Of a stretch of DNA of 64,000 bases, positions 28,114 to 59,293 are shown piece by piece. The translations under genes were made by a program, and so were the position numbers. Origin of the DNA: Escherichia coli (GTDB taxonomy: Bacteria > Pseudomonadota > Gammaproteobacteria > Enterobacterales > Enterobacteriaceae). The number at the start of each line of letters is the position of its first letter. Position 1 is the stretch's first letter. The notes beneath the pieces are model-generated. The model worked only from the letters and a program-made list of their open reading frames with translations, ran no database searches and had not been told where the DNA came from. Where the stretch lies: the NCBI RefSeq assembly GCF_003334305.1, contig NZ_QOWS01000005.1. One strand, 5' to 3'.

Positions 28114-28131
28114 GCACTAGTTCTCTAGTAC
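28114..28131. promoter_or_regulatory. TrpR operator of aroH
   Basis: gcactagttctctagtac (minus strand GTACTAGAGAACTAGTGC) fits the Trp repressor operator consensus built on CTAG half-sites; overlaps the ppsR stop codon. Confidence 0.75.
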
Positions 28132-28958
28132 ATTCGGCGGCTAAGCCCCATGATATCGAGGATCTTGGTGGCAATCTCTTCTACCGAATAATTGGTACTG
28201 TTAATCCACGGGATCTGATTTTTACGGTACAACGCTTCTACTTCCGCGACTTCCATCCTGCACTGACGAAGCGAGGCATAGCGGCTGTTCTCCCGACGTT
28301 CCTCGCGAATCGCCGCCAGACGTTCCGGGTCGATAGTCAGGCCGAACAATTTATGCTGAAGCGGTTTGAGCGACGCGGGTAGCACCAGATTGTCCATATC
28401 GTCGGCAATAAAGGGGTAGTTTGCCGCGCGGATACCAAACTGCATTGCCAGATACAGACTGGTGGGGGTTTTACCACAGCGAGAAACACCGAGCAGGATC
28501 ACCTGAGCCTGGTCCAGATTGCGCAACGAAATGCCGTCATCGTGGGCGAGGGTGTAATCAATCGCCGCAATGCGCGCATCATATTTATTGAGATTATTAG
28601 GGTTAAGGCCATGGGTACGATGAGCAATCGGCGTTGGATCCAGTTTCATCTCTTGTTGTAGCGGGGCAACCAGCGCCTGAACAATATCCTGGCAAAAGCC
28701 TTCACTTTGCAAGATGATGGCGCGAATCTCCGGCAACACGATGGAGTAGAAGACCAGCGGGCGCACACCTGTCTGGTGATAAATTGCGTCAATCTGATCC
28801 TTCACTGCCCGTGCACGGCTCTCATTTTCGACAAACGGCAGCGTAATGCTGCTGATAGTGACGGGAAATTGTGACATTACTGCGTGTCCTAATACCTCCG
28901 CAGTTATTGCCGTACCATCAGAAATATAAAAAACGTGGCGATCAACAGCATTATCCAT
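28125..28958 (-). CDS. ppsR: PEP synthetase regulatory protein (bifunctional kinase/pyrophosphorylase)
   Basis: 277-aa [30 protein letters not shown]... recognised as YdiA/PpsR; P-loop GVSRCGKT. Confidence 0.94.
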
Positions 28959-29188
28959 TTTGTTCTTCCCGTGATGCAGACATAATTCTATGAAAGCATA
29001 AATTAAAAACGCACAGAAGCGTAGGACGTAATGTCTGGTTTATAAAATGAACCTTCAATTTTATTTTTTATGAAAACAGCATTTCATTTTTATGGTTTCG
29101 TTTATACCGATGGTTTATGTGGAAATTGTCGAATAGAGCAGGTTTGCGCAACGCTGGGATCAGTCTTAAAAAGTAAAAAAATATATTT

Positions 29189-29204
29189 GCTTGAACGATT
29201 CACC
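29189..29204. promoter_or_regulatory. Putative Cra (FruR) site upstream of ppsA
   Basis: gcttgaacgattcacc matches the Cra consensus GCTGAAACGTTTCAGC at about 13 of 16 positions, roughly 90 bp upstream of the ppsA ATG. Confidence 0.45.
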
Positions 29205-29290
29205 GTTTTTTTCATCCGGTTAAATATGCAAAGATAAATGCGCAGAAATGTGTTTCTCAAACCGTTCATTTATCACAAAAGGATTGTTCG

Positions 29291-31669
29291 ATGTCCAACA
29301 ATGGCTCGTCACCGCTGGTGCTTTGGTATAACCAACTCGGCATGAATGATGTAGACAGGGTTGGGGGCAAAAATGCCTCCCTGGGTGAAATGATTACTAA
29401 CCTTTCCGGAATGGGTGTTTCCGTTCCGAATGGTTTCGCCACAACCGCCGACGCGTTTAACCAGTTTCTGGACCAAAGCGGCGTAAACCAGCGCATTTAT
29501 GAACTGCTGGATAAAACGGATATTGACGATGTTACCCAGCTTGCGAAAGCGGGCGCGCAAATCCGCCAGTGGATTATCGACACTCCCTTCCAGCCTGAGC
29601 TGGAAAACGCCATCCGCGAAGCCTATGCACAGCTTTCCGCCGATGACGAAAACGCCTCTTTTGCGGTGCGCTCCTCCGCCACCGCAGAAGATATGCCGGA
29701 CGCTTCCTTTGCCGGTCAGCAGGAAACCTTCCTCAACGTTCAGGGGTTTGACGCCGTTCTCGTGGCAGTGAAACATGTATTTGCTTCTCTGTTTAACGAT
29801 CGCGCCATCTCTTATCGTGTGCACCAGGGTTACGATCACCGTGGCGTGGCGCTCTCCGCCGGTGTTCAACGGATGGTGCGCTCTGACCTCGCATCATCTG
29901 GCGTTATGTTCTCCATTGATACCGAATCCGGCTTTGACCAGGTGGTGTTTATCACTTCCGCATGGGGCCTTGGGGAAATGGTCGTGCAGGGTGCGGTTAA
30001 CCCGGATGAGTTTTACGTCCATAAACCGACACTGGCGGCGAATCGCCCGGCTATCGTGCGCCGCACCATGGGGTCGAAAAAAATCCGCATGGTTTACGCG
30101 CCGACCCAGGAGCACGGCAAGCAGGTTAAAATCGAAGACGTACCGCAGGAACAGCGTGACATCTTCTCGCTGACCAACGAAGAAGTGCAGGAACTGGCAA
30201 AACAGGCCGTACAAATTGAGAAACACTACGGTCGCCCAATGGATATTGAGTGGGCGAAAGATGGCCACACCGGTAAACTGTTCATTGTGCAGGCGCGTCC
30301 GGAAACCGTGCGCTCACGCGGTCAGGTCATGGAGCGTTATACGCTGCATTCACAGGGTAAGATTATCGCCGAAGGCCGTGCTATCGGTCATCGCATCGGC
30401 GCGGGTCCGGTGAAAGTCATCCATGACATCAGCGAAATGAACCGCATCGAACCTGGCGACGTGCTGGTTACTGACATGACCGACCCGGACTGGGAACCGA
30501 TCATGAAGAAAGCATCTGCCATCGTCACCAACCGTGGCGGTCGTACCTGTCACGCGGCGATCATCGCTCGTGAACTGGGCATTCCGGCGGTAGTGGGCTG
30601 TGGAGATGCAACAGAACGGATGAAAGACGGTGAGAAAGTCACTGTTTCTTGTGCCGAAGGTGATACCGGTTACGTCTATGCGGAGTTGCTGGAATTTAGC
30701 GTGAAAAGCTCCAGCGTAGAAACGATGCCGGATCTGCCGTTGAAAGTGATGATGAACGTCGGTAACCCGGACCGTGCTTTCGACTTCGCCTGCCTGCCGA
30801 ACGAAGGCGTGGGCCTTGCGCGTCTGGAATTTATCATCAACCGTATGATTGGCGTCCACCCACGCGCACTGCTTGAGTTTGACGATCAGGAACCGCAGTT
30901 GCAAAACGAAATCCGCGAGATGATGAAAGGTTTTGATTCTCCGCGTGAATTTTACGTTGGTCGTCTGACTGAAGGGATCGCGACGCTGGGTGCCGCGTTT
31001 TATCCGAAGCGCGTCATTGTCCGTCTCTCTGATTTTAAATCGAACGAATATGCCAACCTGGTCGGTGGTGAGCGTTACGAGCCAGATGAAGAGAACCCGA
31101 TGCTCGGCTTCCGTGGCGCGGGCCGCTATGTTTCCGACAGCTTCCGCGACTGCTTCGCGCTGGAGTGTGAAGCAGTGAAACGAGTGCGCAACGACATGGG
31201 GCTGACCAACGTTGAGATCATGATCCCGTTCGTGCGTACCGTAGATCAGGCGAAAGCGGTGGTTGAAGAACTGGCGCGTCAGGGGCTGAAACGTGGCGAG
31301 AACGGGCTGAAAATCATCATGATGTGTGAAATTCCGTCCAACGCCTTGCTGGCAGAGCAGTTCCTCGAATATTTCGACGGCTTCTCAATTGGCTCAAACG
31401 ATATGACACAGCTGGCGCTCGGTCTGGATCGTGACTCCGGCGTGGTGTCTGAATTGTTCGATGAGCGCAACGATGCGGTGAAAGCATTGCTGTCGATGGC
31501 TATCCGTGCCGCGAAGAAACAGGGCAAATATGTCGGGATTTGCGGTCAGGGTCCGTCCGACCATGAAGACTTTGCCGCATGGTTGATGGAAGAGGGGATC
31601 GATAGCCTGTCTCTGAACCCGGACACCGTGGTGCAAACCTGGTTAAGCCTGGCTGAACTGAAGAAATAA
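29291..31669 (+). CDS. ppsA: Phosphoenolpyruvate synthase
   Basis: 792-aa [37 protein letters not shown]... recognised as PpsA. Confidence 0.97.
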
Positions 31670-38055: not shown

Positions 38056-39207
38056 TTATTTGTTCTGATAATCTTTCAGGATCTGCCGACCCGCAACGTA
38101 AATCATAATTTCGTCTGTACCGCCGCCGATACGTTCACAACGGACATCACGCCAGAAGCGGGAGACGCGCGCCTCATCGGTATAGCCCAGACCGCCCATG
38201 ATTTGAATCGCATCATCAATGACTTCCATTGCGGTACGTGCACAGTACAGTTTTGCCAGCGCCGCGCTGGTGCGCAGTGACTGATGCTGATCGGCTTGCC
38301 ATGCCACTTTCAGCACCATGTTGCGCATGTTGTCGATCTTAATCGCCATCAGCGCCAGTTTTTCCTGGATCATCTGGTTATGACCAATGGGCTTACCAAA
38401 AGCGATACGTTGGTTGGCATAGCGGGCGGCATCTTCAAAGGCGCATTCGGCAAAGCCGGTGCTGCGCGCGGCGTTGATCAGGCGCTCCATCTCAAAGTTG
38501 TACATCACATTGAGGAAACCCATTCCTTCTTCGCCCACCATGTCGCTCTCTTCAACCTCCACGTTGTCGAGATAGACTTCGCAGGTGCTGAGCATATGCC
38601 AGCCGATTTTATGCAGCGGGTTAATCTTAATGCCGGGCTTACTGGAGTCGACCCACCACAGGGTGAAGGCTTTTTTGGGATCTTTCGGTTGCGGATCGCG
38701 CGCCAGCACCAGCATATACGGGTACTCTTTCGCACCGGTAATAAAGGTTTTTTGTCCGTTGATGTAGACCTTGCCGTTTTTACGCGTGTAAGTGGTAGTG
38801 GCACTGTTGTTATCTGAGCCAGCACCTGGTTCCGTCAACGCCAGGGCATAGGCGGGATCACCCGTTTCCAGGGTGCTCTCTGCCGTTTTACGTAGCTGCT
38901 CTGCAGAACCGAAACGGCGCATACTGTGAATACATTGACCGTTGGTAATTAAAAATGCCGGAGCACCGCATTTTGACACTTCCATCAGCGCCAGCATTTG
39001 GGTGACGTAATCCGCAGGGATACCACCAAATTCTTCCGGCACGCCAAGCATGGAAATACCGTTATCCGCCAGCGCCCGCATAAACTCACGCGGATATGTC
39101 CCGTTTTGATCGCAGGTGCGGAAATACTCTTCCGGAAAGTTAGTCGTAATCAGTTCGCGAATACTGGCCAGCAGCAGTTCTTGTTCTTCAGTTAAAGAAA
39201 AATCCAT
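38056..39207 (-). CDS. ydiO: Acyl-CoA dehydrogenase family protein
   Basis: 383-aa product from MDFSLTEEQELLLASIREL...; AGGAG Shine-Dalgarno upstream. Confidence 0.9.
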   Translation of the reverse strand: MDFSLTEEQELLLASIRELITTNFPEEYFRTCDQNGTYPREFMRALADNGISMLGVPEEFGGIPADYVTQMLALMEVSKCGAPAFLITNGQCIHSMRRFGSAEQLRKTAESTLETGDPAYALALTEPGAGSDNNSATTTYTRKNGKVYINGQKTFITGAKEYPYMLVLARDPQPKDPKKAFTLWWVDSSKPGIKINPLHKIGWHMLSTCEVYLDNVEVEESDMVGEEGMGFLNVMYNFEMERLINAARSTGFAECAFEDAARYANQRIAFGKPIGHNQMIQEKLALMAIKIDNMRNMVLKVAWQADQHQSLRTSAALAKLYCARTAMEVIDDAIQIMGGLGYTDEARVSRFWRDVRCERIGGGTDEIMIYVAGRQILKDYQNK

Positions 39208-39220
39208 CATTATACTCCTG

Positions 39221-40816
39221 TTAATGAGCCGCTTCAGGCAGGACAAAACCCATCGCCGCATCGATAAATAATCTTTCGTTCATCAGTTTGAGTTCTGGCG
39301 AAATCACTGGGGTGAAGTCCATTTTGTCGAGAATATCTTTTTGTAAATCGACGCCAGGGGCGATTTCGATTAAATGCAGGCCGTCTTCTTTCAGCGTGAA
39401 TACAGCACGTTCGGTGATGTAACGAACATCCAGTCCCCGTTCGAGCGCGATTTTTCCGCTAAAAGTAATTTCCGGTAGTTCCCGAATAAATTTATTTACC
39501 CGTCCTTCCTGGACGATATGCAATTTGCCATCGGCAATTTCTGTTTTTAAACTGCCCGCAGTTAACGTGCCGCAGAAAATAATTTTCTTCGAGGTGGCAC
39601 TGATATCAATAAATCCACCGGTACCCATGATTTTGCCATTGAATTTATGCACGCCGACGTTACCGTGCTGGTCGACTTCAGCAAAACTCAAATAACAAAC
39701 ATCCAGACCACCACCGTGATAAAAATCAAACTGGGACGTCATATCCAGAATGGCGCGGGTATTCACGTTCGCGCCAAAGGCGATACCCTGTGAAGTAATT
39801 CCGCCAATCGGACCTGTTTCTACCGTCAGAATAAAGTCATCAGCACAACCTTCTTCCCGGGCGACCAGGCCAATACCGTCAGCAATACCGACGCCGACAT
39901 TCCCCACCGCGCCTTTACGCATTTCGAATAATGCACGCCGCGCAACTAATTTACGTTGGTTTAGGGGCAGGCTAAGTTTGGTGCTGTCATCAAGGGTGAA
40001 GTCACCAGAAATAAAACGGTTAACCGGCGCACCGCCATACAGTTGGCTTTGATCCGGATCGACCACCACAATATCCACCAGATAACCCGGAATACGGACA
40101 GATTTAGGATGCAGCGTGGCTTTCTTAACCATTTTCTGCACCTGCATCATCACAATACCGCCGTTATTGTGCACCGCCTGGGCAATAACCAATGCGTCGA
40201 GATACATCACCTCATCTTCAAAAGTGGCGTAGCCTTCACTGTCGCAGGTGGTAGCGCGAATGAAGGCGATATCTGGCGCAATCGCTTTGTAATAGAGATA
40301 TTCTTTGTTATCAAACTCGACCAGTTTAATCAGGTCTTCTTTCGTGACTTCATTCAGTTTGCCGCCTTGCTGGCGTGGATCGACAAATGTCCCGATGCCA
40401 ATATCACTAATAATACCAGGCTGGTGGGCTGCGGCGGCGCGTAAGGTTTGTGTAAGTACACCTTGTGGATAGTTATAAGCAATAATTTTATTTTGTTCTG
40501 CGAGTTCAGAAATACGCGGCGATTGTCCCCAGTGACCACATAATGCCCATTTCACCAGACCTTCTTGCGCCAGAGGACTAATACCACGGTCGGCGCGATC
40601 GCCAAGCCCTGTCGGACTAATAATCGATAAATTACGTGGCGTTTGAGTCTGTTTATATTTATCAGCAAGAGCTGTAATTAACGTGGTGGCTTCCAGAATA
40701 CCGCCGCCAGCGCCTAACACACAAAGTGTTGCTTCGTCGGGAATATAATTCACCGCTTCCTGTGCCGACAGGACCGGCACTCGTCCATTAATACGAGGTG
40801 GTTTTACAGGTTTCAT
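39221..40816 (-). CDS. ydiF: Fused acyl-CoA:acetate CoA-transferase (alpha/beta subunits)
   Basis: 531-aa ORF recognised as YdiF. Confidence 0.9.
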   Translation of the reverse strand: MKPVKPPRINGRVPVLSAQEAVNYIPDEATLCVLGAGGGILEATTLITALADKYKQTQTPRNLSIISPTGLGDRADRGISPLAQEGLVKWALCGHWGQSPRISELAEQNKIIAYNYPQGVLTQTLRAAAAHQPGIISDIGIGTFVDPRQQGGKLNEVTKEDLIKLVEFDNKEYLYYKAIAPDIAFIRATTCDSEGYATFEDEVMYLDALVIAQAVHNNGGIVMMQVQKMVKKATLHPKSVRIPGYLVDIVVVDPDQSQLYGGAPVNRFISGDFTLDDSTKLSLPLNQRKLVARRALFEMRKGAVGNVGVGIADGIGLVAREEGCADDFILTVETGPIGGITSQGIAFGANVNTRAILDMTSQFDFYHGGGLDVCYLSFAEVDQHGNVGVHKFNGKIMGTGGFIDISATSKKIIFCGTLTAGSLKTEIADGKLHIVQEGRVNKFIRELPEITFSGKIALERGLDVRYITERAVFTLKEDGLHLIEIAPGVDLQKDILDKMDFTPVISPELKLMNERLFIDAAMGFVLPEAAH

Positions 40817-45789: not shown

Positions 45790-45927
45790 CGTGTAATGGC
45801 TGCATGAAATAAACAATAAAATATAAATAACATTATCAGCCTGCTGACGGCTTGAAGAGAGTCACAGTATCTTGTGCAACATTATTGGAAAGAGTGAGGG
45901 GCGAGGTAGCGAAGCGGAAAAATGTTA

Positions 45928-46032
45928 AAAAAAAGCCCATCGTGGGAGATGGGCAAAGACTACACACAGCAATTCGTTGTTTCACTCAGGGGATTTCCAT
46001 GCTTATAAATCAATATGTTGATTTATAACCGT
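45928..46032 (-). ncRNA. rprA: RprA small regulatory RNA (Hfq-dependent activator of rpoS translation, RcsB-controlled)
   Basis: Minus-strand read ACGGTTATAAATCAACATATTGATTTATAAGCATGGAAATCCCCTGAGTGAAACAACGAATTGCTGTGTGTAGTCTTTGCCCATCTCCCACGATGGGCTTTTTTT matches the recalled 105-nt RprA sequence exactly, including the 3' terminator hairpin and U-run; located between ydiL and ydiK as in K-12. Confidence 0.9.
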
Positions 46033-51470: not shown

Positions 51471-51639
51471 TCCTGACTTAATGCCGCAAGTTCGCCAAAT
51501 CGACCTGGATTAACCTCCGTCCAGGTTCGATGACCTTCTTAATACTGCTTATCTACCGCCTGATATTGTTCAAAAATAATACTAATCGCAGTTTGTGTTA
51601 AAACGGCGGGTTAGCTTTATGAGATTATTCTTATCGCCC

Positions 51640-51745
51640 CTTCAAGAGCTAAGCCACTGAGAGTGCCGGAGATAAGCGCCGGATGGGGTAGAAACCCTTA
51701 AGCCTGTGTTGCACAGACTTAAGGGTTTTCTTATTTCTGAACGCT
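51640..51745 (+). ncRNA. Candidate small RNA with intrinsic terminator in the ydiH-sufA intergenic region (possibly RydB)
   Basis: Strong hairpin aaacccttaag-cctgtgttgcacaga-cttaagggttt followed by tcttatttct on the plus strand, in a 550-bp non-coding gap; I recall an sRNA (rydB) mapping between ydiH and sufA in K-12 but cannot recall its sequence. Confidence 0.35.
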
Positions 51746-59266: not shown

Positions 59267-59293
59267 TATACAAATTAATTCACAAAAGCAATA

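Follow-up and report, generated by a model that had tools for sequence, protein, structure and literature searches.

The Cra (FruR) operator of ppsA in the divergent ppsR-ppsA spacer of Escherichia coli and its conserved distance to the ppsA promoter

Introduction

The Cra (FruR) operator of Escherichia coli K-12 ppsA is the closest described system to the element analysed here, and its role is a textbook case of how flux controls the PEP-pyruvate node. According to the passages of PMC7897506 that cite Negre 1998, the operator bound by the E. coli protein (EcFruR) is centred at -45.5 and mediates strong stimulation of ppsA transcription, this stimulation by FruR is direct in vitro, and EcFruR at ppsA belongs to the class I activators, strengthening the binding of the alpha C-terminal domain. 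The same passages report that a significant amount of ppsA transcript is made without FruR, activation not being all-or-none, and those on the effector state that fructose-1-phosphate (F1P) interferes with EcFruR binding at the ppsA operator (PMC7897506). Fructose-1-phosphate is the effector of Cra, while the binding and role of F-1,6-BP are disputed (PMC10760178). Acetate, relative to glucose, induces the ppsA promoter 16-fold, in a study that used a ppsA promoter whose Cra site had been scrambled as its Cra-independent internal control and also compared a delta-cra strain; the operator is already in use as the sensing part of glycolytic-flux biosensors (PMC5555440). By ChIP-exo the Cra motif has been given as ctgaAtCGaTtcag, with ppsA and fbp up-regulated by Cra (PMC5888115).

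Here we describe a stretch of 64,000 nucleotides of the E. coli chromosome (the window, to which all positions refer) that contains the ppsR and ppsA genes. An earlier sequence-only reading of this DNA had drawn attention to a near-palindrome between the two genes, resembling the Cra consensus. We examined the match of this box to Cra binding sites, its position relative to the mapped promoters of both genes, and its conservation.

Results

The ppsR-ppsA locus

The genes ppsR and ppsA diverge across a spacer of 332 bp (28959..29290), which bears out the sequence-only reading: ppsR on the minus strand and ppsA on the plus strand had been said to start 330 bp apart, and both genes lie where they had been placed (Table 1). 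PpsR scored 430.6 bits against the NCBIfam equivalog NF049928 (cut-off 350) and PpsA 1317.3 bits against NF005057 (cut-off 598); their adjacency, with both scores above the equivalog cut-offs, identifies the PpsA/PpsR (DUF299) enzyme-regulator pair. The spacer is 100% identical to that of strain E2865 and was found in 5421/5426 complete E. coli genomes. Window positions 29144..29310, which include the box, the core promoter and the ppsA start codon, are identical to K-12 MG1655, and the 4 SNPs relative to that strain all lie upstream of 29144 (29025, 29030, 29134 and 29143). No Rfam family reached its gathering score in 28959..29290. Small open reading frames in the spacer (27-55 aa, called mechanically) were dismissed, the sequence there being poorly conserved.

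Table 1. Coordinates of the genes, promoter elements, operators and RNA features in the window.
Feature	Position	Strand	Basis or remark
ppsR (ydiA) CDS	28125..28958	minus	PEP synthase regulatory kinase/phosphorylase; ppsR annotation in 100%-identical E. coli record
ppsR TSSs, weak promoter	28988, 28983	minus	Kim et al. 2012 (PMC3415461) suppl. file 2, mapped
Probable ppsR -10 hexamer TATGCT	28995..29000	minus	-12..-7 from 28988 start; inferred assignment
Conserved element	29047..29087		ATGAAC at 29047; palindrome TGAAA-N6-TTTCA 29071..29086; AGCATTTCAT 29078..29087
A/T-rich tract	29169..29188	plus	-73..-54, directly upstream of Cra box
Cra (FruR) operator GCTTGAACGATTCACC	29189..29204		-53..-38 from ppsA TSS, centre -45.5
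ppsA -35 position	29207..29212	plus	TTTTTT, 2/6 to TTGACA; counted back from TSS
Extended -10 of ppsA promoter	29227..29235	plus	TG (-15/-14), c, weak hexamer AAAGAT (-12..-7)
ppsA TSS	29242	plus	Kim et al. 2012 (PMC3415461) suppl. file 2, mapped to window
ppsA CDS (PEP synthase)	29291..31669	plus	ORF and annotation
Published PdhR box AgTTGGTtatACCAAag	29322..29338		Inside ppsA codons 11-16; reverse complement CTTTGGTATAACCAACT in window
pykF Cra operator GCTGAAACCATTCAAG	60912..60927		Upstream of pykF (minus, 59293..60705); 14.09 bits, rank 3; 14/14 consensus
pheST leader (Phe_leader)	17127..17251	plus	Rfam gathering score
STnc540	21092..21250	plus	Rfam gathering score
RprA sRNA	45925..46032	minus	Rfam gathering score
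RydB sRNA	51636..51696	plus	Rfam gathering score

Sequence match of the Cra box

The box GCTTGAACGATTCACC has its centre 94.5 bp and its near edge 86 bp before the ppsA ATG. It matches the palindromic Cra consensus GCTGAAWCGWTTCAGC at 13/16 positions, the same count as had been claimed from the sequence alone. Taken by itself this is a weak criterion, as five such matches occur in the window where 1.16 are expected, and at this level of specificity the box might be a chance near-palindrome without a regulatory role. Read on the minus strand, GGTGAATCGTTCAA (29191..29204) agrees at 14/14 positions with the asymmetric FruR consensus RSTGAAWCSNTHHW, which was experimentally defined by Negre 1996 in the wording quoted in PMC5829826; matches of 14/14 to RSTGAAWCSNTHHW number three in the window against 0.63 expected, another of them being the site upstream of pykF.

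A Cra matrix was derived de novo with a palindromic Gibbs sampler, run with 40 restarts and without a seed motif on the promoter regions of 13 other K-12 genes known or reported to be Cra-controlled (fruB, pfkA, tpiA, pck, fbp, aceB, icd, epd, edd, ptsH, mtlA, adhE and nirB). The sampler converged on GCTGAATCGATTCAGC in 19/40 restarts. Under this matrix the box scores 15.75 bits, more than 9/13 of the leave-one-out training scores (range 8.9-19.9), and ranks first among 63,985 window positions; a matrix scan had been proposed as a check on the original observation, and it sets the box above background and well above the majority of bona fide sites. Hits of this strength are expected 0.2 times per random 64 kb and only about 0.001 times per spacer of 332 bp, which argues against a chance near-palindrome. 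The matrix gave no second Cra site in the spacer, where the next best position scored 4.0 bits. A full-text literature search with the exact operator sequence in both orientations gave no paper. The gene for the regulator itself, cra (b0080), is annotated in K-12 and is present in 5424/5426 complete E. coli genomes, a species-level count.

Architecture of the ppsA promoter

The ppsA transcription start site (TSS) lies at NC_000913.2 1785185, is supported by 420 reads and gives a 49-nt 5' UTR (Kim et al. 2012, PMC3415461). Coordinates were transferred by taking K-12 v3 as 1816403 minus the window position, and v3 as v2 + 1976; the upstream sequence listed for this start, TGAACGATTCACCG...AAATGCG, agrees with the window. 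The box centre, 29196.5, then falls exactly at -45.5 from the mapped start at 29242, and so coincides with the operator centre given for ppsA in the part of PMC7897506 that treats it. The sequence-only reading had placed the box about 90 bp upstream of ppsA, which is right when measured from the start codon, but the relevant figure is the -45.5 from the TSS. At -53..-38 the operator lies upstream of the RNA polymerase site, as for an activated target.

No plus-strand promoter was called in the spacer by a simple sigma-70 scan. The scan missed the ppsA promoter because a usable -35 is absent, and it gives no independent support; the same absence of a -35 means that an activator is needed. Of the tract that precedes the box, the AAAA at 29169..29172 is conserved, and 42 Enterobacterales share the high A/T content of the tract. 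By analogy with the class I description, it is a possible docking surface for the alpha C-terminal domain of RNA polymerase.

Cra is not the sole regulator of ppsA, since a PdhR box and a CRP hit by genomic SELEX have also been reported. For PdhR, genomic SELEX gave a peak for ppsA/ppsR with the 17-mer AgTTGGTtatACCAAag at 1785098 (PMC7660256 Table 1), and ppsA mRNA is down more than 2-fold in a pdhR mutant, the effect of PdhR on ppsA being positive (PMC7660256). CRP genomic SELEX includes ppsA among its targets, with no site mapped (PMC3105977). A weak CRP-like match, TGTGGaaattgTCGAA, is present at 29118..29133, centred about -116.5 from the ppsA start, and its TGTGG part is partly conserved.

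Conservation of the box and its spacing

A scan of representative genomes covered 80 ppsA loci. The divergent ppsR-ppsA arrangement is retained in 77/80 of these gammaproteobacterial loci, and the box is present in the same orientation, at 11.9-18.5 bits, in each of the 42 Enterobacterales loci whose upstream sequence was long enough. Its promoter-proximal half, CGATTCA, is nearly invariant (41/42 Enterobacterales loci), while the distal half varies. The 37 spacers from Alteromonadales and other gammaproteobacteria contained no Cra box (0/37), with no position above 9.8 bits. When 18 Enterobacteriaceae spacers were aligned, the conserved non-coding block of greatest length was 29186..29212, which comprises the box and the T-tract.

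In 41/42 Enterobacterales loci the box is followed, at 23 nt in 18 loci and at 24 nt in 23 loci, by the start of an extended -10, defined as TGn and a hexamer that has A as its second and T as its sixth base. The distance from box to ATG ranges from 90.5 to 214.5 in Enterobacterales loci, and spacer length across loci from 160 to 643 bp. Because the 23/24-nt spacing is fixed while the distance to the ATG varies, the conserved quantity is the phasing of operator and promoter, which is as would be expected of an activator that works from one face of the helix. A chance near-palindrome would hardly be the most conserved non-coding block of its spacer or recur in every Enterobacterales locus at a fixed promoter distance, and the K-12 sequence, which is identical, has published binding and function data (PMC5555440, and the passages on ppsA in PMC7897506). 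We give that reading next to no credence, and regard it as already refuted by conservation and literature.

Within E. coli, identity over the 86-bp core reaches 99% or more in 4182/5418 genomes, and the box is intact in both divergent alleles that were inspected. In one of these, from strain SCU-485 (corresponding to window 29165..29212), T6 replaces T7 between box and promoter, which would shift the box to -44.5, and the A-tract upstream of the box is expanded. This tract difference may reflect either true variation or an error in sequencing the homopolymer.

Operators of the LacI family share a central CG and A/T flanks. The box might accordingly be occupied in vivo mainly by another LacI/GalR-family regulator that shares the core AANCGNTT, with Cra control being indirect, and a distal half that is degenerate and differs between genera would agree with this. 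However, the nearly invariant half GGTGAATCG contains the Cra-specific TGAAWC and belongs to the 14/14 match to the Cra-specific 14-mer, and the box tops the window under a matrix that was trained solely on Cra promoters. Cra is known as a global regulator specifically in Enterobacterales, and it is to Enterobacterales loci that the box is confined, with none in the other gammaproteobacterial loci sampled. Moreover, FruR stimulates ppsA directly in vitro in the account given by the relevant passages of PMC7897506, and the promoter with a scrambled site served as a Cra-independent control (PMC5555440). Occupancy mainly by another family member is thus very unlikely, and we retain Cra as the regulator that acts at this box.

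The ppsR promoter and the question of shared control

Kim et al. 2012 (PMC3415461) mapped the ppsR start sites to NC_000913.2 1785439, with 8 reads, and 1785444, with 7 reads. The probable -10 hexamer of this promoter, TATGCT, lies inside a block, 28993..29006, that is conserved in 18 Enterobacteriaceae. The ppsR and ppsA promoters are arranged back-to-back, 254 bp apart, and, seen from ppsR, the Cra box has its centre at -208.5. It had been proposed from the sequence that ppsR is transcribed in the opposite direction from the same region as ppsA; this holds for the divergence of the genes from a common spacer, but ppsR has a weak promoter of its own and the operator is not demonstrably shared.

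If the box were a shared bidirectional operator that also regulated ppsR, the enzyme and its regulator would be coupled. Such co-regulation would be biologically sensible, and the two genes do diverge from a single 332-bp spacer in an arrangement kept in nearly all loci (77/80). Nevertheless, at -208.5 from the ppsR start the box is far outside the distance over which class I activators usually work, and there is no second Cra box in the spacer that might serve ppsR (next best 4.0 bits). The spacing between box and ppsA promoter is constant to within 1 bp in 41/42 loci whose spacers vary in length from 160 to 643 bp, and as the one is fixed while the other varies, the constraint lies on the ppsA side. 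Divergence of the genes is also retained in Alteromonadales and other lineages that have no box. The literature searched contained no report of Cra-dependent ppsR expression. A bidirectional operator is therefore improbable in our judgement: as ppsR starts 254 bp away, its control by Cra is unlikely, and from this arrangement ppsR is probably not under the Cra box.

A further conserved element between the promoters

Beyond the Cra box, the spacer contains a further conserved element at 29047..29087, which is a modest addition to the description of this region. Across Enterobacteriaceae its half-sites are conserved and the spacers between them are not; it is absent in Yersinia, Proteus and Photorhabdus. 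Part of the element, CATTTCAT, occurs a single time in the 64 kb. Relative to the start of ppsR transcription the element occupies -59..-99.

Within it, AGCATTTCAT agrees at 9/10 positions with the YpdB/PyrR motif GGCATTTCAT, a motif that was picked post hoc. LytTR sites, the type recognised by YpdB/PyrR, consist of two repeats of 9-11 nt with 11-13 nt between them, and YpdB has no direct target other than yhjX (PMC4847170). In Enterobacteriaceae genera other than that of E. coli two nnCATTTCAT copies 13 nt apart occur on the ppsR strand; in Kluyvera, Superficieibacter and Enterobacter BIGb0383 the two copies, with a 13-nt spacer, reach 8-9/10. E. coli has one copy at 9/10 (29078..29087), with no direct partner 21 nt to either side on the same strand, and its opposite-strand copies, 13 nt apart, reach 6/10 each by hand count, where the threshold for listing was 7/10. 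We do not assign 29047..29087 to YpdB, since the repeat architecture is not found in E. coli itself. It is doubtful that the element is an unrecognised site through which a transcription factor, possibly of the pyruvate-responsive LytTR type (YpdB/PyrR), acts on the weak ppsR promoter; if this were true, external pyruvate sensing would be linked to the kinase/phosphorylase that gates PEP synthase. Alternatively, the element could be an upstream minus-strand promoter, with ATGAAA (29087..29082) as -35 and TAAAAT (29063..29058) as -10.

Other features of the window

The RNA features RprA, RydB, Phe_leader and STnc540 are all normal for this region of E. coli and were expected here. Cra-like matches at 12700, 15383 and 26508 are inside coding sequence and compatible with chance. 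The first of these, GCTGTATGGATTCAAC at 12700..12715, scores 14.4 bits and is second in the window; by coordinate mapping it falls in what the E2865 annotation gives as a frameshifted pseudogene of the type III effector espL1. Chance is its probable origin, because random stretches of 64 kb have a mean best score of about 14 bits. The annotation of strain E2865 (NZ_AP018808.1) has ydiF, espL1 and ydjO as frameshifted pseudogenes, which map to about 38474..40068, 11410..13309 and 3270..4074 of the window, respectively, and an IS621-family transposase that starts at the window's left edge.

Discussion

The sequence match, the matrix rank, the identity to K-12, the position relative to the TSS, and the conservation of both box and spacing are the evidence contributed by this analysis. 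We take the element to be the Cra (FruR) operator of K-12 ppsA (Negre et al. 1998, J Mol Biol 276:355; Ramseier et al. 1993/1995). Together with binding and activation reported in the literature for the identical K-12 sequence, our data leave us with little doubt that the box at 29189..29204 is the operator by which Cra activates the sigma-70 ppsA promoter. Gluconeogenic activation of ppsA through the box, as the sequence-only reading had it, is supported by the matrix score, by the published operator position and by the induction on acetate. The box is a long-known Cra activator site of ppsA; it is textbook knowledge, and there is nothing new in the operator itself. Its re-finding indicates that a real operator can be recognised from sequence alone and adds no biology. 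A modest addition is that the distance between box and extended -10 is fixed within 1 bp in 41/42 Enterobacterales loci, and that none of the other gammaproteobacteria sampled has the box.

The following mechanism would account for these features. With an extended -10 (TGcAAAGAT) and essentially no -35, the ppsA promoter is predicted to have low activity unaided. A Cra dimer bound at -53..-38, beside the upstream A/T tract, would help RNA polymerase to bind; class I-type activation is taken from the literature, and from it we infer a contact of the alpha C-terminal domain with the A/T tract. At high glycolytic flux, fructose-1-phosphate would free Cra from the DNA and ppsA would drop to its basal level, while on acetate or pyruvate Cra would remain bound and PEP synthase would be induced. 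The divergent ppsR, which has a weak promoter of its own at a distance of 254 bp, encodes the kinase/phosphorylase by which PpsA is switched post-translationally off and on.

Compared with known systems, the K-12 ppsA Cra operator is the same element, with identical sequence, its centre at -45.5 and activation of ppsA at low glycolytic flux. Operator and core promoter are without difference from those of the K-12 ppsA region, and the 4 SNPs are confined to sequence further upstream. The Cra operator of pykF, also in this window, has the regulator, the motif and the PEP-pyruvate node in common with the ppsA box. The upstream pykF start site is at NC_000913.2 1753493, and relative to it the pykF site occupies +8..+23. 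Because it overlaps the transcribed region, the pykF operator is a repressing one; activation is the role of the ppsA box, which stands upstream of its promoter. Opposing enzymes of the PEP-pyruvate node encoded in one window, ppsA and pykF, thus both carry Cra sites, with opposite sign.

Activation of the CRP type, class I or class II, offers a wider comparison, as there an upstream dimeric activator likewise compensates for a poor -35. At -45.5, the Cra box is further upstream than the canonical class II position (-41.5) and short of that of class I (-61.5). Unlike CRP, Cra binds through a LacI/GalR-type helix-turn-helix with a hinge helix, and its effector takes the activator off the DNA, whereas the effector of CRP loads the activator. 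The Vibrio cholerae FruR at the fru promoter is a homologous regulator that is also a transcription activator; VcFruR binds between -35 and -10 in a MerR-like manner, requires F1P and is essential for fru expression (PMC7897506). In contrast, EcFruR at ppsA, as described in the passages of PMC7897506 citing Negre 1998, binds upstream, does not require F1P and boosts a promoter that already has basal activity.
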